Notes: generated from the letters alone by a model not told the origin. DNA of 44,683 bases from Thermodesulfobacteriota bacterium (GCA_034658835.1 JAYEGA010000058.1:1-44683); one strand, 5' to 3'. Counted from the first letter of the stretch, positions 2,098 to 24,095 are shown. Translations and numbers: made by a program.

Positions 2098-2472
2098 CTA
2101 TCCAAGAAAATAGCTCATGTAGGGGTTTGCGAAGAGGAGAACAAGAGAAATAACGAGGGCATATATGGCGATTGATTCTGCCATGGCCATACCAACAAGC
2201 ATGGTCATCAATATCTTTCCCTGAACTCCGGGATTTCTTCCAACTGCCGTGCATGCTCCGTTTCCAATGTTGCCGATCCCTATACCCGCGCCGACAGCCC
2301 CCACGCCAATAGCAATACCTGCTGCAATCATTGCTCCGACTGACCAGATAACCTTTGTGTAAGATTCACTTGCAGGAAGCGCTTCTGCGGCAAAGGCCAC
2401 TGATGAAGATATTAGCAGGATAACCGTTGTTGTTAAGAGGGCTAATAACATTTTTCTGAGTTTCTGTGACAT
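2098..2472 (-). CDS. atpE: F-type ATP synthase subunit c with an N-terminal signal-peptide-like extension
   Basis: The GxGxGxG helix-1 motif (GAVGAGIGIGNIGNG), the RNPG loop and the helix-2 carboxylate motif MAMAESIAIYALVISLVLLFANP are present. The first ~30 aa look like a Sec signal (KK, a hydrophobic core, then AFA-AE). A strong SD (AAAGGAG) sits 9 nt upstream of the ATG. Confidence 0.85.
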   Translation of the reverse strand: MSQKLRKMLLALLTTTVILLISSSVAFAAEALPASESYTKVIWSVGAMIAAGIAIGVGAVGAGIGIGNIGNGACTAVGRNPGVQGKILMTMLVGMAMAESIAIYALVISLVLLFANPYMSYFLG

Positions 2473-2586
2473 TTCTCATTACTCCTTTCATTGTTCAATG
2501 TTTTTTTATTTTCCGCTTTTCCTTTTCTTATAGCACGAAATACGTTTCGTGGAAAGTGGAAATTTTTGAGAACCGAATGGGGGTTT

Positions 2587-2602
2587 TGCAACAGTTATGC
2601 CA
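2587..2602 (-). promoter_or_regulatory. Candidate sigma-54 (-24/-12) promoter directed at atpE
   Basis: The minus strand reads TGGCATAACTGTTGCA, against the consensus TGGCAC-N5-TTGCW. GG and GC have the canonical spacing. The site is about 116 nt upstream of the atpE ATG, and a 7-bp-stem hairpin (2534-2551) lies in the predicted leader. Confidence 0.6.
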
Positions 2603-2695
2603 CTTTATTCTGGATTGTGGTTTCTGCTTTAACATAGTATAAATGTTTATATAATTTGAATTTCGGGTCCCTGTGCTCAATATTCTTCCAGGGAG

Positions 2696-2753
2696 CGCAG
2701 TTTAACGTCTTGTTAAATTGCGTCCTGCGAATTTAACGAATTGTAAAATTGGC
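2696..2753. promoter_or_regulatory. Two tandem dyad-symmetric sites, candidate enhancer (UAS) for a sigma-54 activator
   Basis: Site 1 is CGCAGTTTAAC-N5-GTTAAATTGCG (2696-2722, 10/11 symmetric). Site 2 is GCGAATTTAAC-N5-GTAAAATTGGC (2727-2753, 9/11 symmetric). Their centres are about 31 bp apart, and about 110 and 140 bp upstream of the -24 element. Confidence 0.45.
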
Positions 2754-2774
2754 TCACATATCAGTATATTTTTA

Positions 2775-2803
2775 TTGAAATATTTTGACTGGAACGATAG
2801 TAT
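2775..2803 (+). promoter_or_regulatory. Possible sigma-70 promoter for the small-ORF/kinase operon
   Basis: TTGAAA (2775-2780), 17-nt spacer, TAGTAT (2798-2803). The match is weak to moderate. Confidence 0.3.
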
Positions 2804-2885
2804 GCAGGAGCCAGATGAGTTTATTCGTAAGAGAGTGGATAAAGGTTCTGGAACTTTTGATTCCATGTTGTGAGAGGGTAAAATA

Positions 2886-3062
2886 ATGATGCAGGAAGTA
2901 TTGACCGCTGTAACCTATCTGGTTGTTTGGCTTATCTGTGAAAAGGTTATTGGTATTGAGAGTGGATTGACCAAGCTTCTTATTTCGTTGGGTTCTGCTG
3001 TGGGTGTTTATATATTGATGGCTGTTAAAGAACATAAAGAGAAAGACCAAAGAAAGGAGTAA
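2886..3062 (+). CDS. Small (58 aa) predicted two-TM membrane protein, below the ORF-track cutoff
   Basis: My translation is MMQEVLTAVTYLVVWLICEKVIGIESGLTKLLISLGSAVGVYILMAVKEHKEKDQRKE. An SD-like GAGAGGG lies 7 nt upstream. The TAA stop abuts the TTG start of the kinase at 3063, and the kinase SD (AAGGAG) lies in the last codons of this ORF. Confidence 0.4.
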   Translation: MMQEVLTAVTYLVVWLICEKVIGIESGLTKLLISLGSAVGVYILMAVKEHKEKDQRKE

Positions 3063-5696
3063 TTGACTGTGCAGAAAACCCGGTCCAGCGATAAAAATAA
3101 GCGTTTTGAAATCAATTCAATGCTTTCCATCTGGCTGGCCACTCTAACTGTTGTTTTCTTGATTGTCCTGTTTGCTCTGGTCATCAACAGTGCAAGGGAA
3201 AAAGATATGGTGGAGCAGTATAGTAAACAGCAGCTTACTATTGCCAGGGGGACAGCCGCTGGAATAGAGGATCTCGTTGTTGGCGTTGAGAGGAGTATGA
3301 TAAATCTGTCCAGGCTTCCATGTGTTAAGGGAACTATGCCCGAAGCCACACTCCAGAGCTTGAAGGTAATATATAGTGATCTGGAAGGGAAGGTCAGTTT
3401 TATAGCCATAGAAGATAAGGATGGAGTAGCTATAGGTGCTTACCCGGCTTCTTTCCTGAAAGAAATGACGGGTGAGAGCTTTCAATTTTACCGCTATTTT
3501 CAGGAGGTAAAGAAAACAGGAAGACCGTATATAAGCGATCTGGTACTGGCGGGTGGAGAAAAAGGTAAGGACTTGGAAAGCAAATTTAAGTCTATTATTA
3601 TTGCTGTTCCCAGATATGATTCAGACAATGAGTTTTCCGGTGTGGTTTTTGCCGCCCTTTCTCTTTCCACCATAATCGATCGGTACATCAGGCCGGTCAA
3701 GTGTGAGGTATCGTGCTATTCCTGGATGGTGGATGATGGTGGTACAATACTTGTCCACCATGACGCGGAATTTATAGGAAAGAATATAGGGATACTCGAA
3801 GGCGCTAAATCTCAGGGATCAATACCCCTGAAAGATATTCTGCTGAAAGATGAAGGGGGATACGGTGAGTATTTGCTGCTTGCAGATGGTGGCAGGGTTG
3901 AAAAAAATGTTGTAGCCTATGCCCCGATTCATCTGGGTTCACGAAAAAGGGTGATCGCCATCAATTCTCCTTATGATATGGTGATTTCACTTTTGCGTAA
4001 GACTTTTCTCGATATCATGTCTGTAGCTGTCGGGTTGATTGTTGTCGTTATTATCGGAAGTATGTTTATGGTCCATTCGGGGAGAAAGCGACTGCGTCTC
4101 GAAGAAGAAGTGAAGCACCTGAAGGAGAGGAGTGTCTGGCAGGAAAAACTCGCCAGGGAGAAGAAGACCATTGAAGGAATCATAGAAGGATCTCCCATAC
4201 CGACATTTGTCATAAATAAAGAGCATGAGATCATCCTCTGGAGCAAGGCCTGTACTGAGCTGACCGGTTTTGACAGCAAGGAGATGATAGGCACAGACAG
4301 GCAGCATGTTCCATTCTATCCGGACAAGAGACCGGTTATAGCCGATCTGATTATTGATAATGATACTGAAGGATTGAAAAAGTATTATGGTGGTAAGATG
4401 GTACAGGAGTCGGTGGTAGTAAAGGGTGCTTATGAAGCGAGTGATTTCTTTAAGGACTTAGGTGGTAAAGATAGACACCTCTATTTTTTGGCGGCTCCGA
4501 TATATGATAAAAAAGGGGAGGTTATTGCAGCTATTGAAACCCTTCAGGATGTCTCCCATGAAAAGGAAATGGGACTCAAATTAAAGGAATATGCGGAGAC
4601 CCTCGAAAATGAACTGGATAAAAATGTCAGGCTAAAAGATGAGATGGAAGGACTTTACAATTATCTACAGTCTATATTGGATAGTTCCCCCGATCTGGTA
4701 TTTGTCTTCAACAGTGAGGGAGCTATCGATTATGTCAGCCGGGAAATGAGAGAAAAAAACGGATCTGCCTTTCAGCAGATCAAGGGTAAACATTTTACAG
4801 GATTTGTTGCCCCGGAACACAGGGATTCCATGCTTGAAAAATGGAAAGAGATAAAGAGAGGAATATTTAAACCTTTCGAGATTGAGGTAAAAAGAGAGGA
4901 TGGTTCGGCAAGAAATTTATTGTTAATCTCCGGCCCGATTAAGGGCACGGACCGGTATGTTGTTGTTCAACGTGATATTACGGAATTTAAAAACCTTGAG
5001 AAAAAATTCTATGAGAGCCAGAAGCTTGCTGCTGTGGGACAGTTGTCCGCCGGTATTGCACACGAAGTCAGAAACCCGCTTTCTTCTATAAAAATGAGCC
5101 TTCAAATTCTGGAAAAAAGGCTGAAACCTTCAGGAAATGATTTGAAGAGATTCAAGATTGCCGAGAAGGAGGTTGAGCACCTGGAGAAACTGGTAAGAGA
5201 TATCCTTATTTTTGCCAAGCCTGGAGAACCTAAAAAGGAACTTGATGATATCAATAAATTTCTTGGACGTTCTCTTGCAATGGCTGAAAAGGAAATATCG
5301 GACAAAAAGATAAATATCCAGTATATGTATGATAAAAATATTCCGCTTGTGAAATTTGATTCAGCCATGTTGGAGGAGGCATTTTTAAATATCTATCTCA
5401 ATGCTGTTGACGCAATGGAAGATCGGGGAAAGCTCTTAATATCGACGAAACTGCTTAAGAATAAGCATGATTCCATCGTTGTTAAGATTGAGGATAATGG
5501 TTGTGGTATTGATGAGGAGGACCTGCATCACATATTCAACCCATTTTTTACGAAGAAGAAGTATGGTACCGGTCTTGGGTTGACCCAGGTTAAGAAGATT
5601 GTTGACCTGCATCAGGGAACGGTGGAAGTCGTAAGTAAAAAGGGGAAAGGAACGACAGTTTGTATCACATTTCCTATTTTCAGTGAGGAAACGTGA
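3063..5696 (+). CDS. Sensor histidine kinase (TM, periplasmic Cache, TM, two PAS domains, HisKA, HATPase_c)
   Basis: H-box is AAVGQLSAGIAHEVRNPL. N-box is LNIYLNAVDAM. G-boxes are DNGCGI and GTGLGL. Two hydrophobic segments flank about 270 aa of Cache-like sequence. The TTG start sits 5 nt after AAGGAG; an alternative ATG is at 3120. Confidence 0.9.
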   Translation: MTVQKTRSSDKNKRFEINSMLSIWLATLTVVFLIVLFALVINSAREKDMVEQYSKQQLTIARGTAAGIEDLVVGVERSMINLSRLPCVKGTMPEATLQSLKVIYSDLEGKVSFIAIEDKDGVAIGAYPASFLKEMTGESFQFYRYFQEVKKTGRPYISDLVLAGGEKGKDLESKFKSIIIAVPRYDSDNEFSGVVFAALSLSTIIDRYIRPVKCEVSCYSWMVDDGGTILVHHDAEFIGKNIGILEGAKSQGSIPLKDILLKDEGGYGEYLLLADGGRVEKNVVAYAPIHLGSRKRVIAINSPYDMVISLLRKTFLDIMSVAVGLIVVVIIGSMFMVHSGRKRLRLEEEVKHLKERSVWQEKLAREKKTIEGIIEGSPIPTFVINKEHEIILWSKACTELTGFDSKEMIGTDRQHVPFYPDKRPVIADLIIDNDTEGLKKYYGGKMVQESVVVKGAYEASDFFKDLGGKDRHLYFLAAPIYDKKGEVIAAIETLQDVSHEKEMGLKLKEYAETLENELDKNVRLKDEMEGLYNYLQSILDSSPDLVFVFNSEGAIDYVSREMREKNGSAFQQIKGKHFTGFVAPEHRDSMLEKWKEIKRGIFKPFEIEVKREDGSARNLLLISGPIKGTDRYVVVQRDITEFKNLEKKFYESQKLAAVGQLSAGIAHEVRNPLSSIKMSLQILEKRLKPSGNDLKRFKIAEKEVEHLEKLVRDILIFAKPGEPKKELDDINKFLGRSLAMAEKEISDKKINIQYMYDKNIPLVKFDSAMLEEAFLNIYLNAVDAMEDRGKLLISTKLLKNKHDSIVVKIEDNGCGIDEEDLHHIFNPFFTKKKYGTGLGLTQVKKIVDLHQGTVEVVSKKGKGTTVCITFPIFSEET

Positions 5697-20495: not shown

Positions 20496-20597
20496 TTAAA
20501 AACACCTCCCACGTGGGTTCAGTGTTACGAATATTATCTTCATCGAACTTTGAAATCAAGGAAATAAAAGGTCTTGAGGAGAGAGGGGTTTTTAAAA

Positions 20598-20646
20598 AGA
20601 AAAAAAGGGCACCGTATTGGTAAAAATAACTTTTACCCCGGTGCCC
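20598..20646 (-). terminator. Rho-independent terminator ending the long minus-strand MMC operon
   Basis: On the minus strand, GGGCACCG...CGGTGCCC (with an inner GGTAAAA/TTTTACC extension) is followed by a T7 run, just after the carboxyltransferase stop at 20670. Confidence 0.65.
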
Positions 20647-20669
20647 CATTTTTAAAGCTTCAACTTGTC

Positions 20670-22247
20670 TTACTCCGGCATAAGCTCGTGCTTCTTATAT
20701 GGCAACTTAACATCCTTGTCCTTGAATAGCTTAAGTGCCTTGCATACAAGAGGTCTTGTTTCTACAGGATCTATAACACTATCCAGATTAAGATTAGCTG
20801 CCGGTGTAGTGGCTATCAGGAAGAGGTTTCTATACTCTTTCAGCAACTCCGCTCGCTTCGCATTGGGATCTTCTGCCGCCTTTATCGCTTTGCGCTCGAT
20901 GACATTTACTGCGCCTGCCGGCCCCATAACCGCCATTTCACATCCGGGCCATACCATAACAATATCCGCACCCATGTCCTTGGAGCACATGCCCAGATAA
21001 GAACCCCCGTATGCCTTCCTGGTAACCACGGTTATCTCAGGCACTGTTGCTTCAGCATAGGAATAAAGCATTTTTGCCCCATGTCTGATTATACCCATCC
21101 ATTCCTGGTCTGTTCCCGGCAGATATCCGGGAACATCAACAAGATTCAGTATTGGGATGTTATAAGCATCGCAGAACCTGATGAACCTGGAGCCTTTATC
21201 GGAACAGTTTACATCAAGAGAGGCTGCCAGAACCATAGGATTCTGTGCCAGTATACCTACCGTATTTCCATCCATTCTGGCCAGGGCACATATAAGGTTT
21301 CTGGCATACCGATCCTGCCAATCCATAAAGTCCCCATTGTCCACTATTGTTCCTATAAGCTTTTTCATATTAAAAGGTCTTGTCGGGCTGTCAGGAACAA
21401 AACTGGCCAGTTCCGGTGAGGTTCTATCCGGTGGATCACCGGTTTCAACATGTGGTGGTTTCTCCTTGGCGCTTCCCGGCATAAAACTGAGGAACCTCTT
21501 TATCTGCTCAATGCAATCATCTTCGCTCTTAACGAAGAATGTGGAAACCCCACTCGTCCCGCTGTGAACACCTGCTCCACCAATATCCTCATCCTCAACT
21601 TCCTCGTCAGTAGCTGCCTTTATTGTAGCCGGATCATTGGCGTACATTTTGGTTATCTTATCCACTGTGAATACACAGTCCGCGAGGCCCGGGATAAGAG
21701 TAATTCCGCCTGTGCATGACCCCATAACAGCGCAGAGTTGAGGTATGGCTCCCGAAAAGAGGGTCATGTTATATACTATATCTCCAAGGCCGCTCAGTGA
21801 ATCGGGTCCTTCTTTTACCCTTAAACCTTCCGAGTCGATAACATACAGCATGGGACAGCCAACGTTATTAGCCTCTTTCATGACTCTCACTATCTTATCT
21901 GCGTGTATTTTTCCCAGCGTTCCACCCATAACCGTAATGTCCTGGAAGGCGCTGTAAAGAATCCTCCCATTGACGGTTCCGTATCCCGTTACCACGGCAT
22001 CCGCCGGTGTATCTTCCTTAAATACATCATAATGTGGAGTTACGGATTTACAAAATACACCTGTTTCGACAAAGGTTCCCGGGTCATAAAGCTTTTCCAG
22101 CCTCTCCCTTGCCGTATATTTTTCCATGTCGTGCTGGCGCTTTATTGCTTTCTTGCCGCCCATTTCATGGATTTTTGCCTCTAACTTCTTCATATGTTCA
22201 ATCTTTTCCAACGTACCCATATCGTCAAATGTTTTCTTCTCTGCCAT
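20670..22247 (-). CDS. Acyl-CoA carboxyltransferase (12S / PccB family), paralog A: N-domain motifs degenerate, C-domain motifs canonical
   Basis: The C-domain motifs VDVPGYLPGTDQE, GIIRHGAKMLY, TRKAYGGSY and the LPYKKH tail are conserved. The N-domain reads DSEGLRVKEG, GSCTGGITLIPG and MYANDP where the family consensus is DSGGARIQEG, AGGxVYSPA and MFITGP. Confidence 0.85.
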   Translation of the reverse strand: MAEKKTFDDMGTLEKIEHMKKLEAKIHEMGGKKAIKRQHDMEKYTARERLEKLYDPGTFVETGVFCKSVTPHYDVFKEDTPADAVVTGYGTVNGRILYSAFQDITVMGGTLGKIHADKIVRVMKEANNVGCPMLYVIDSEGLRVKEGPDSLSGLGDIVYNMTLFSGAIPQLCAVMGSCTGGITLIPGLADCVFTVDKITKMYANDPATIKAATDEEVEDEDIGGAGVHSGTSGVSTFFVKSEDDCIEQIKRFLSFMPGSAKEKPPHVETGDPPDRTSPELASFVPDSPTRPFNMKKLIGTIVDNGDFMDWQDRYARNLICALARMDGNTVGILAQNPMVLAASLDVNCSDKGSRFIRFCDAYNIPILNLVDVPGYLPGTDQEWMGIIRHGAKMLYSYAEATVPEITVVTRKAYGGSYLGMCSKDMGADIVMVWPGCEMAVMGPAGAVNVIERKAIKAAEDPNAKRAELLKEYRNLFLIATTPAANLNLDSVIDPVETRPLVCKALKLFKDKDVKLPYKKHELMPE

Positions 22248-22293
22248 AGGAAACCTCCTTTGATTTATACTTTACCCCTTATTCTAACCGGTT

Positions 22294-23916
22294 CTAATGC
22301 GGTTTGACGTTGTGTTTCTTATACGGTAAATCGATCTCTTTCTTTTCAAACATCTTAAGCGCTTTACATATAAGGGGCCTGGTGTCAGCAGCATCTATGA
22401 TCTCGTCAATGTATAACTTAGCCGCTGGTACAGCCGGATCTGAGAAACGAGACCTGTAATCCAGCTCATCTCCCCCAATGGTAGCCACTGCGCTTTCAGG
22501 GCTCGCAGCCGCCATCTCACATGTGGGCCATGCCAGAACTAAGTCCGAACCCAGGTCCTTGGAGCCGATGAGAGCCGGCGCTCCAAACGCCTTCCTGGTT
22601 ATAACGGTTATTTTGGGAACAATAGCCTCAGCATAAGCCTGGATCAGCTTTGCCACATGCCTGATTATGCCGCCTACCTCCTGGTCCTTTCCGGCAGCAT
22701 ATTCGGAGGCATCAACGAAGCTTATAATGGGTACATTGTATGCATCACACAACCTCATGAATCTGGATCCCTTGTCACCGGAGTTTATATCCAGGGCACC
22801 ATTAAGATGCATCGGATTCTGCGCTATTATTCCTACTGAAGCTCCATTCATCCTGGCAAAAGCGCATATGAGGTTTGGTGCAAAGAGTTCCTGCCATTCA
22901 AAGAAGTCTCCATTATCGACTACTGTTTCTATGACCTTCTTCATGTCAAATGGCTCGGTCAGACTATCAGGAATTATCTTCCTCAATTCCGGTGTGGTTC
23001 TGTCCGCTGGATCACCGGTTTCGACATATGGAGGTTTCTCCTTGGCGCTTCCCGGCAAGAAGCTGAGCAGTTTCTTTATCTGCCATATGCATTCGTCTTC
23101 GTCCCTGGCGTAAAATGTGCCGTTTCCACTTCGTTCACAATTAACCCTGGCGCCGCCAAGTTCTTCCTTTCCAACCTCCTGTCCCAGAATTGCCTTTATC
23201 ACTATTGGCCCGGTGATGAACATCTCAGTTTCACCTTCCACTGTGAATATACAATCCATCAGCGCCGGTGAATAGACGGCCCCTCCGGCACAGGGTCCAA
23301 TAATGGCACAGAGCTGTGGAACACAACCCGAATATATACTGTTGGTATAGAAGAGATCGCCATAGCCGGCCAGTGAATCGGTTCCCTCCTGTATTCTGGC
23401 TCCACCGGAATCGGCAATATACAATATGGGACAGCTATTCTGAACTGCCTCACCCGCGACCCTTTTTATTTTATCCGCGTGTGTTTTTCCCAGCGTTCCA
23501 CCCCAACATGTAAAGTCCTGAAGGAAAGCATAAACAGGCCTTCCTTCGATAAGTCCATAACCTGCTGCTATACCATCTGCAGGAATATCCTCCAATGGGA
23601 CTTTGTACATATCGTAATGGAGACATGAAGATTTGCAATGCAGGCCAATCTCGACGAATGTTCCGGGGTCAAATAGCAGATCGATTCTTTCTCTTATAGT
23701 ATATTTGCCTCTTTCATGCTGTCGATTTATCCCCCTTATACCACCCATCCGCTCCAGAACGCCCTTGCGTGCCTGGAAGACCTCATATTTCTCTTCTGTG
23801 GTCAACTCAGGCCATTTTTTGTCCTTATACTTCTCTGTAACTTCCTTATACTTCTCTTCCCTTTCAGTAGCCCACTCTTCTGTAGTGGTCCATTTTGATT
23901 CTTTCCCCTCAGCCAT
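22294..23916 (-). CDS. Acyl-CoA carboxyltransferase (12S / PccB family), paralog B: N-domain motifs canonical, C-domain motifs degenerate
   Basis: The N-domain motifs DSGGARIQEG, GPCAGGAVYSPAL and MFITGP are conserved. The C-domain reads VDASEYAAGKDQE, GIIRHVAKLIQ and TRKAFGAPAL where the family consensus is VDVPGFLPG, GIIRRGAKLLY and RKAYGGAY. Confidence 0.85.
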   Translation of the reverse strand: MAEGKESKWTTTEEWATEREEKYKEVTEKYKDKKWPELTTEEKYEVFQARKGVLERMGGIRGINRQHERGKYTIRERIDLLFDPGTFVEIGLHCKSSCLHYDMYKVPLEDIPADGIAAGYGLIEGRPVYAFLQDFTCWGGTLGKTHADKIKRVAGEAVQNSCPILYIADSGGARIQEGTDSLAGYGDLFYTNSIYSGCVPQLCAIIGPCAGGAVYSPALMDCIFTVEGETEMFITGPIVIKAILGQEVGKEELGGARVNCERSGNGTFYARDEDECIWQIKKLLSFLPGSAKEKPPYVETGDPADRTTPELRKIIPDSLTEPFDMKKVIETVVDNGDFFEWQELFAPNLICAFARMNGASVGIIAQNPMHLNGALDINSGDKGSRFMRLCDAYNVPIISFVDASEYAAGKDQEVGGIIRHVAKLIQAYAEAIVPKITVITRKAFGAPALIGSKDLGSDLVLAWPTCEMAAASPESAVATIGGDELDYRSRFSDPAVPAAKLYIDEIIDAADTRPLICKALKMFEKKEIDLPYKKHNVKPH

Positions 23917-23976
23917 AAGATACCTCCTTATTTATACTTGGTTTAACTTTGGTGGTCTCGTGAAAAATTCACACAG

Positions 23977-24095
23977 TGTCATTCTGAGGAGTCCTGAGTG
24001 TAAACGAAGAAACTTGACGAAGAATCTCAACAATACCTGCCTGCCGCGCTGCGGCGCAGGCAGGTCAGATTCTTCTCTATTGCTCAGAATGACAT
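23977..24095. repeat. REP/MITE-like nested palindromic intergenic element (~120 bp)
   Basis: The outer arms are TGTCATTCTGAG (23977-23988) / CTCAGAATGACA (24084-24095). The inner arms are GAAGAATCT/AGATTCTTC and ACCTGCCTGC/GCAGGCAGGT. The 5' end, GTCATTCTGAGGAGT, resembles GTCATTGCGAGGAGT at 37023. Confidence 0.7.

Follow-up and report, generated by a model that had tools for sequence, protein, structure and literature searches.

In the PccB and 12S family of carboxyltransferases (CTs) every active site is shared by two chains of a dimer, one giving its N-domain and the other its C-domain, as seen in the structures of 12S and PccB. What, then, is the role of two adjacent full-length CT genes when one of the encoded proteins is altered in its N-domain and the other in its C-domain? 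The question is raised by a tandem pair of paralogs, here termed A and B, in a stretch of 44,683 nucleotides from a Thermodesulfobacteriota bacterium (GCA_034658835.1, JAYEGA010000058.1:1-44683), the whole of which we call the window. We conclude that A and B very likely associate as a heteromer. Somewhat less surely, we consider it probable that this heteromer is obligate and has one live composite site per dimer, formed by the N-domain of B and the C-domain of A. Catalytic silence in half of the sites, and an A3B3 stoichiometry, we would put forward with less confidence than the heteromer itself.

A and B are 52% identical to each other, and both are about 45-50% identical to the solved homohexameric CTs from Thermotoga (1vrg), P. 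shermanii (12S, 1on3) and S. coelicolor (PccB). In profile searches each matches PF01039 from end to end (A, protein 38-522 on profile positions 2-492 of 493, E = 1e-144; B, protein 65-536 on positions 1-491 of 493, E = 3e-141), covering both crotonase-like halves. They are two-domain acyl-CoA CTs of the PccB/12S/MmdA type, and the open reading frames lie where a preliminary description of the locus had placed two full-length proteins of this kind. The best NCBIfam model for both is TIGR01117 (mmdA), with A scoring 646.9 bits and B 600.1 bits, below its cut-off of 998.8 bits. In AlphaFold2 (AF2) monomer models, which speak to the folding of single chains, both halves of each protein fold confidently. 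Their PF01039 scores of 483 and 467-472 bits are well under the values of about 650-700 bits for canonical CTs across the phylum, among the matches listed. Low scores are what would be expected if one copy were a decaying, non-functional duplicate and the reciprocity of the changes a coincidence, a reading that the selection analysis below renders hardly credible.

Two glycine-based oxyanion holes have been defined by cryo-EM of the mycobacterial carboxylase for long-chain acyl-CoA (LCC) in comparison with PccB (1XNY); hole 1 lies in the N-domain and stabilises the acyl-CoA enolate (G186-G187 in AccD5, G169-A170 in AccD4), and hole 2 lies in the C-domain and stabilises carboxybiotin (G428-A429 in AccD5, G405-G406 in AccD4) (PMC13612425; bioRxiv 10.64898/2026.02.06.704326). 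By these published definitions the two halves of the site divide between the domains in the way the preliminary description had assumed, and every motif string it quoted is present in A and B. Positions are given here in PccB numbering taken from a HMMER alignment, in which G182-G183 is the GG of CAGGAVY and G418-G419-A420 the GGA of FGGAY. Aligned with the solved structures, each paralog has its substitutions in the active-site loops of a single crotonase-like half. All three loops of the N half are changed in A, and all three of the C half are changed in B; we take these to be the three structurally equivalent active-site loops of the crotonase repeat (loop 1, the start of the oxyanion helix and loop 3).

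The hole 1 region of B is fully canonical. In A the GG of this hole is kept within the genus, with DSEGLR, xTGGITLIPG and MYANDP in the three loops and the substitutions P179S, A181T, A184I, V185T, Y186L, S187I and A189G around the retained glycines. One point of the earlier description of an eroded N-domain in A is to be corrected: the change affects the neighbours of the hole glycines and the other two loops, and not the glycines themselves. Hole 2, together with the AVMG and RHGAK loops, is canonical in A and is changed in B by G419A/A420P, a one-residue deletion, AAAS and RHV. Proline at position 420 is found in all 15 B-type sequences, and takes away a backbone NH at hole 2; in the AF2 monomer models the helix that starts at this hole has four residues in B compared with eight in A. 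The proline apart, we infer loss of activity at the altered loops from the pattern of substitution. Neither protein singly has both oxyanion holes with canonical loops, and A and B jointly cover both. The coordinates of these and other features are collected in the table.

Table. Features of the A/B locus, of the putative partner genes, and sources of other B-then-A tandems. Positions are those of the window unless a contig is named; substitutions are in PccB numbering.
Feature	Position	Strand	Remarks
Paralog B	22294-23916	-	540-aa CT; N-domain canonical, C-domain altered; first transcribed of the pair
B translation initiation region AAGTATAAATAAGGAGGT	23917-23941	-	
B-clade N-terminal extension, residues 1-38 (KWTTTEEWA...EKYKDKKW)	23803-23916	-	conserved in all B-types
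B N-loop 1, DSGGARIQEG	23383-23412	-	canonical
B N-loop 2, GPCAGGAVYSPA	23263-23298	-	GG is oxyanion hole 1 (PccB G182-G183), intact
B N-loop 3, MFITGP	23206-23223	-	canonical
B C-loop 1, VDASEYAAG	22690-22716	-	canonical VDVPG[FY]LPG; V376A, P377S, G378E, L380A, P381A
B IRHVAKLI	22642-22665	-	canonical IRHGAKML; G394V; N, T or V in the B clade
B C-loop 2, RKAFGAPA	22573-22596	-	canonical RKAYGG[AS]Y; hole 2: G419A, A420P and a one-residue deletion just after
B C-loop 3, AAASPESAV	22486-22512	-	canonical AVMGxxGA[AV]; V444A, M445A, G446S, G449S
B-A spacer, 46 nt	22248-22293	-	holds the Shine-Dalgarno of A; AAGTATAAAT.AA(A)GGAGGT stretch
Paralog A	20670-22247	-	525-aa CT; N-domain altered, C-domain canonical, 12S-like
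A N-loop 1, DSEGLRVKEG	21807-21836	-	canonical DSGGARIQEG; G142E, A144L, Q147K; fixed in 11/11 A-types
A N-loop 2, GSCTGGITLIPG	21687-21722	-	canonical GPCAGGAVYSPA; GG kept; GA in more distant A-types
A N-loop 3, MYANDP	21630-21647	-	canonical MFITGP; F204Y, I205A, T206N, G207D
A C-domain loops VDVPGYLPG, IRHGAKML, RKAYGGSY, AVMGPAGAV	20907-21140	-	all canonical, near-identical to P. shermanii 12S
Intrinsic terminator 3' of A, GGGGCACCG...CGGTGCCC then T-run	20594-20647	-	
Malic-enzyme-like gene, 485 aa	29476-30933	-	slot between epimerase and fumarase; same in L004
OadG-like anchor (OAD_gamma match)	contig C29:6057-6185	-	outside the window
Na+-pump beta subunit, 373 aa	contig C29:4887-6008	-	PF03977 E 8e-154; TIGR01109 E 1e-148
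Biotin carrier, bare biotinyl domain, 71 aa (AMKM)	contig C29:4603-4818	-	
B-then-A tandem, L004			JGI 3300028169
B-then-A tandem, L005			ENA lake or sediment contig
B-then-A tandems, L007-L009			three JGI/Logan contigs
B-then-A tandem, L010/L013			NCBI VGTB01000003
B-then-A tandems, L011, L012			two Syntrophales metagenome-assembled genomes
B-then-A tandems, reference genomes			G001, G003, G004, G053

The reciprocity was measured in an alignment of 221 proteins from two homology searches together with the pairs derived from loci, from which sequences shorter than 480 aa were dropped; the aligned set has 206 canonical, 11 A-clade and 15 B-clade members. The motifs DSGGAR, xAGGAVYSPA, [MA][FY]ITGP, RHG[AS]K, YGG[AS] and AVMG are near-invariant in the canonical sequences, and the deviant states are confined to the A and B clades. 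The description of B as canonical in its N-domain and changed in its C-domain motifs thus holds against 206 relatives. Columns conserved in at least 95% of the canonical set number 159 (77 in the N-domain and 82 in the C-domain). The A clade has lost 18 of these in the N-domain and 4 in the C-domain, and the B clade 5 and 15, respectively (Fisher's exact test on the 2x2 table, p = 4.7e-4). Losses in the other domain are mostly common to both clades, and are therefore probably older than the split between A and B. When branch lengths were re-optimised on a fixed topology, separately for N- and C-domain columns, the stem of A measured 0.44 and that of B 0.12 in the N-domain, with 0.11 and 0.30 in the C-domain; over the full length, A and B have each diverged by 0.51 from their common ancestor. 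Because both the column losses and the domain-wise stem lengths are reciprocal, the mirror-image change in A and B is real and quantitative.

These observations can be accommodated by a simple scheme. A canonical transcarboxylase-type CT gene would have been duplicated, one copy (A) acquiring altered N-domain loops and the other (B) altered C-domain loops, and the simplest assembly would be an A3B3 hexamer of three A:B dimers. The N-domain side of each site would handle the acyl-CoA enolate at hole 1, and the C-domain of the partner the carboxybiotin at hole 2. An A:B dimer would then present a canonical site (N of B with C of A) and an altered site (N of A with C of B), while an A:A dimer would combine an altered N half with a good C half at both of its sites, and a B:B dimer a good N half with an altered C half. 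The enzyme would interconvert methylmalonyl-CoA and propionyl-CoA in the methylmalonyl-CoA pathway, its biotin partner in this genus being an OadG-like anchor, a Na+-pump beta subunit and a 71-aa biotin carrier. Judged from its sequence, the gene cluster in the window comprises the complete methylmalonyl-CoA (propionate) pathway, and the metagenome-assembled genome (MAG) has no PF01039 gene other than A and B; nor did the near-complete genomes of two congeners, G001 and G003, yield any further full-length CT. An obligate heteromer is the most economical reading, because only the A:B combination gives a canonical site, no full-length CT besides A and B turned up in these genomes, and the pathway needs the reaction.

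Could A and B instead act as separate homo-oligomers? B might for example be a biotin-independent methylmalonyl-CoA decarboxylase, with A handling carboxybiotin but having a changed acceptor pocket. Each protein does keep the chemistry of one intact half-site, each folds confidently as a monomer in the AF2 models, and the solved members of the family are as a rule homohexamers. However, any homodimer site would join an intact half to an altered half and no canonical site would be formed, and G001 and G003 yielded no further full-length CT for the canonical reaction of the complete pathway. Strict tandem co-inheritance, congruent trees and matched translation signals also speak against independent action of the two proteins. 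Two homo-oligomers with every site crippled are implausible because full-length CTs other than A and B did not turn up in these two genomes, and we regard separate homo-oligomers as improbable. We infer the physical heteromer, together with its stoichiometry, the inactivity of its altered site and the identity of its partner, from the sequences and their distribution.

Maximum-likelihood analysis recovers A and B as two monophyletic groups (100/100 for each) that are sister to one another (96/89), within a clade whose 520-aa members have canonical motifs in their N and C halves alike; the nearest outgroup is the protein P0023 (99/96). The branching order within A is congruent with that within B, each mirroring the other; sister clades with mirrored topology indicate one duplication followed by co-inheritance of the two genes. 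The order B-then-A, with a spacer of 23-46 nt, is kept in every contig and genome examined, so that the pair is conserved as a unit, as the preliminary description had required. One genome, G002, seemed to have no pair, and this is explained by a contig-edge fragment. The clade is small; a search of 5.8 billion proteins gave about eight B-type and about five A-type clusters at 90% identity, and close relatives of B were found in MAGs of Syntrophales and Deltaproteobacteria. One canonical member of the sister clade (P0019) lies on a Logan contig (SRR11308169, L020) beside genes for thermosome, TiaS and PTH2. This context looks archaeal, and would imply that the clade from which A and B originated spans domains or has moved horizontally.

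Both proteins are conserved down to 64-69% identity. In unsaturated comparisons dN/dS lies between 0.05 and 0.15 in all four domains; for L004 against L011 the values are 0.108 (A, N-domain), 0.074 (A, C-domain), 0.059 (B, N-domain) and 0.053 (B, C-domain). In deep comparisons non-synonymous change has built up in the altered halves only about 1.5-1.8 times faster than in the intact ones. No copy contains a stop or a frameshift. With the statistical support for reciprocity these data effectively refute a decaying duplicate, and by the evidence of selection neither A nor B is decaying. The term eroded, used when the locus was first described, is too strong for domains under purifying selection.

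Purifying selection on the altered halves raises another explanation, in which A and B do associate but the composite site made of N of A and C of B has taken on a new use, in allosteric control, in binding a different ligand or in docking of the carrier or partner, perhaps conferring polarity on the hexamer. Residues E140, L142, K145, M161, G187, A203 and I222 of A are fixed in 11 of 11 sequences, and D205 in 10 of 11, across lineages as little as 64% identical. The altered domains have dN/dS of about 0.1, with dN raised merely 1.5-1.8-fold over the intact ones, and the same G-to-E change (DSEGxR) arose independently in a large, separate CT family. The B-types moreover have an additional charged segment at the N-terminus, about 30-38 aa long (KWTTTEEWA.E.E.KY.E..EKY.DK.W), which neither the A-types nor any of the canonical relatives possess. 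In B an extra helix is predicted by AF2 at residues 13-29, with a predicted local distance difference test score (pLDDT) of about 90, and this conserved helix is a candidate docking element. On the other hand, the altered C-loops of B vary by subclade (A/T, A/V, N/V/T, A/G, A/P), which resembles relaxation rather than a defined pocket; constraint from folding and hexamer packing could alone explain the purifying selection, and the sequence names no ligand or partner. We therefore think a repurposed site unlikely, although less so than separate homo-oligomers, and return to the heteromer with one live site per dimer.

The partner of the A/B heteromer has to be sought outside the window. The host MAG comprises 99 contigs totalling 1.30 Mb, with a completeness rating of 77%, compared with 2.5-3.0 Mb and 94-98% for four congeners; its actual completeness is probably nearer half, and absences in this MAG alone are not to be trusted. 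A true acyl-CoA carboxylase was set aside because biotin carboxylase (PF02785) had no match in the contigs of the MAG, the congeners not having been searched for it. The 5S/OadA domain (PF02436) had no match in the MAG or in the four congeners that are 94-98% complete. A transcarboxylase (12S + 5S + 1.3S) would have a 5S subunit alongside the CT, and this is found in relatives and not in the genus. Loss of a 5S gene through incompleteness of the MAG was largely rejected, since the congeners also have no PF02436 and a malic-enzyme-like gene occupies its slot.

What the genus does possess is a single operon encoding an OadG-like protein, a beta subunit and a biotinyl domain of 71-73 aa, adjoining a DUF364 gene in the MAG and conserved in all four congeners. 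The membrane subunits of a Na+-translocating decarboxylase are thus encoded, without linkage to an alpha gene. The 71-aa carrier has neither the Ala/Pro linker nor the N-terminal anchor typical of MmdC or 1.3S. Given that A and B are the sole CTs found and that OadA and 5S were not found, the role of A/B in this genus is most likely that of the alpha component in a Na+-coupled methylmalonyl-CoA decarboxylase; run in reverse, the module could serve as a Na+-driven propionyl-CoA carboxylase. In more distant pair lineages the operon slot of the malic-enzyme-like gene is taken by a 674-679-aa fusion of 5S and biotin carboxyl carrier protein (BCCP) (L005, 8111-10150; L007, 7184-9208). With the 681-aa frame of G053, these fusions of 674-681 aa consist of HMGL-like, PYC_OADA and biotinyl domains, and the canonical sister P0012 is also adjoined by a 5S-BCCP fusion. 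The partner in those distant relatives is probably the fusion, giving a transcarboxylase. Because 5S-BCCP occurs both in distant pair lineages and beside P0012, the ancestral partner was probably of the transcarboxylase type, the A/B pair having outlived a change of partner. The different occupants of the operon slot and the lack of PF02436 in the four near-complete genomes suggest that the link between transcarboxylase and oxaloacetate was replaced in the genus by malic enzyme and a Na+-coupled module.

Several points weigh against an obligate heteromer with half of its sites silent. Oxyanion holes use backbone amides, so changes of side chain need not abolish function, and the A protein of the window keeps GG at hole 1, where AccD4 is functional with G-A. 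Seven of the 18 N-domain columns lost by A are uniform over its 11 sequences, which fits a new function equally well, and with such conserved altered loops the nominally dead site may hold another role. The MAG is merely 1.3 Mb compared with 2.5-3.0 Mb for its congeners. An additional partial CT-like frame of 467 aa is open in G004 (G004:C25:526-1578), and G053, which belongs to another family of the same order and also carries the 5S-BCCP gene, has besides the pair a third, fully canonical CT (630 bits; G053:C61:10106-11560), so that CT domains are not confined to the pair in those lineages. The CT genes, on contig C58, are not adjacent to the beta and BCCP genes on contig C29. Lastly, the proposed association of A with B is drawn from the combination of sequence, phylogeny, synteny, selection and gene inventory.

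The same arrangement seems to occur elsewhere. A Syntrophales genome (L015, equal to G018:C50) carries at 2284-5429 a second kind of tandem CT pair, next to a gene resembling pyruvate formate-lyase (PFL)-like glycyl radical enzymes, and further pairs lie on L021 (7001-10137) and L022 (7001-10178); their gene order is opposite to B-then-A. On L021 the genes flanking the pair encode a PFL-like glycyl radical enzyme together with its activase, and also acyl-CoA dehydrogenase and ADP-forming acyl-CoA synthetase. DSEGxR and MHVAPP-like loops mark the upstream copy, which retains the C-half motifs RK.YGG, G.MG and RHG. The downstream partners at the three loci have a more canonical N-domain set (…AGS.YSP) and have lost all three C-loops, which read GECSGYAE, RNCSGLGE or RRCWGATR in one position and GFLD, GRVA or RIEG in another, with RHG gone. 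The 511-aa member at L015 belongs to a family of at least 120 clusters, with 47-97% identity, that includes Spirochaetota, Chloroflexota/Dehalococcoidia and Syntrophomonadaceae. Among 70 sequences listed from this family about four-fifths carry DSEGxR and most have an MHVAPP-like loop instead of MFITGP, the RK.YGG, G.MG and RHG motifs of the C half being kept. In a quick tree the L015 pair are mutual sisters (0.93, on long branches) and fall outside the whole group of canonical, A and B sequences, and the splitting of sites between paralogs therefore seems to have arisen at least twice. Another candidate, L016 (G040), was rejected as a tandem pair; its two CT genes are non-adjacent with biotin carboxylase between them, as in an ordinary carboxylase cluster. 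More speculatively, split-site heteromers might be a recurrent and widespread solution that originated independently no fewer than two times, once in the young A/B pair of Syntrophales and once in an older, much larger multi-phylum family in part associated with glycyl radical enzymes, with convergence even on the G-to-E change in DSGGAR. The silent site would perhaps be repurposed, and reduction of a D3 hexamer to a polar C3 particle would suit one-sided partners, for instance a trimeric Na+ pump in the membrane. We consider this extended proposal rather doubtful.

The operon on the minus strand runs sucC, sucD, methylmalonyl-CoA epimerase, the malic-enzyme-like gene, a two-subunit fumarase, sdhA, sdhC, sdhD, sdhB, B, A and terminator. 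Divergent from it are the genes for methylmalonyl-CoA mutase with its B12 subunit and for MeaB. Nearly the same sequence, AAGTATAAAT.AA(A)GGAGGT, precedes A (22248-22272) and B (23917-23941), 5-6 nt from the ATG, and the translation initiation region was apparently copied with the gene or has been kept matched. The shared strand, the strong and closely matched ribosome-binding regions and the single terminator fit matched co-expression of the two proteins. In the 302-nt gap between sdhB and B lies a nested palindrome of about 120 nt (~23977-24095; GTCATTCTGAG ... CTCAGAATGAC) with a GC-rich inner hairpin. This could be an element resembling repetitive extragenic palindromes (REP), or an internal attenuator or processing site that separates expression of the CT genes from that of sdh.

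It has long been taken that biotin-dependent CT cores are symmetric homohexamers. The first mixed core, of AccD4 and AccD5, was resolved in 2025-2026 and keeps six sites. In the searchable literature, outside of which most subscription journals lie, we found no prior description of CT heteromers with reciprocal changes or pseudo-sites, and only the papers on mycobacterial LCC surfaced. If our reading is true, the principle embodied by A/B would be another one, in which the heteromer is obligate, only half of its sites are canonical and polarity is inherent. Such tandems are now annotated as two copies of 'acyl-CoA carboxylase beta' or 'methylmalonyl-CoA carboxyltransferase', and recognising the heteromer would affect the stoichiometry and energetics of models of syntrophic propionate metabolism. 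It would also have a bearing on the assembly of CT cores, with soluble 5S subunits in one case and with a membrane Na+ pump in the other. As an evolutionary case, the pair offers a clean, datable duplication after which an interface site degenerated in complementary fashion; its canonical sister clade can serve as control, and a second case, apparently independent, is at hand.

The CT core of the mycobacterial LCC is (AccD4)2(AccD5)4 (PDB 9t97; bioRxiv 10.64898/2026.02.06.704326; PMC13612425), and is the closest precedent for a CT core that is not homomeric, with two PccB-type paralogs in one two-layered hexamer. However, AccD4 and AccD5 both keep both oxyanion holes, all six of the six sites bind substrate, the paralogs differ in chain length of substrate, and the 2:4 assembly is organised by AccE5. 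In A and B the difference is a reciprocal change of half-sites and not of pocket size, which predicts a 3:3 ratio with half the sites canonical; both holes in each paralog combined with a pocket difference is not what we find. P. shermanii 12S (1on3) and S. coelicolor PccB (1xnv, 1xny) resemble A and B in fold, length, identity (~45-50%) and the dimer-interface site, and the C-domain loops of A are near-identical to those of 12S (RKAYGGSYL.MC, VDVPG., AVMG). They differ in that one gene supplies both halves of all six sites. In E. coli AccA/AccD and in MdcD/MdcE there are two polypeptides per site, a beta-like N half and an alpha-like C half, to which our proteins show weak matches. These are single-domain halves, whereas A and B are each full two-domain proteins in which the second half is structurally intact but altered.

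The Na+-translocating methylmalonyl-CoA decarboxylase MmdABCD(E) is known from Veillonella parvula and Propionigenium modestum. The genus is similar in having an OadG/MmdD-like anchor, a beta subunit and a biotin carrier, with no OadA or 5S. For the Mmd decarboxylase a passage in PMC8892533 cites Bott et al. 1997. The difference is that alpha here would consist of two paralogs with TIGR01117 scores below cut-off, the 71-aa carrier is without linker, and the alpha genes are unlinked from those for the membrane subunits.

Duplicated homo-oligomers whose interface sites have undergone complementary degeneration are found in the deoxyhypusine synthase of trypanosomatids and in the NAD-isocitrate dehydrogenase IDH1/IDH2 of yeast. 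Such paralog heteromers combine catalytic with non-catalytic, sometimes regulatory, sites. Their fold and chemistry are unrelated to those of the carboxyltransferases, but their evolutionary logic is the same as that which we propose for A and B.

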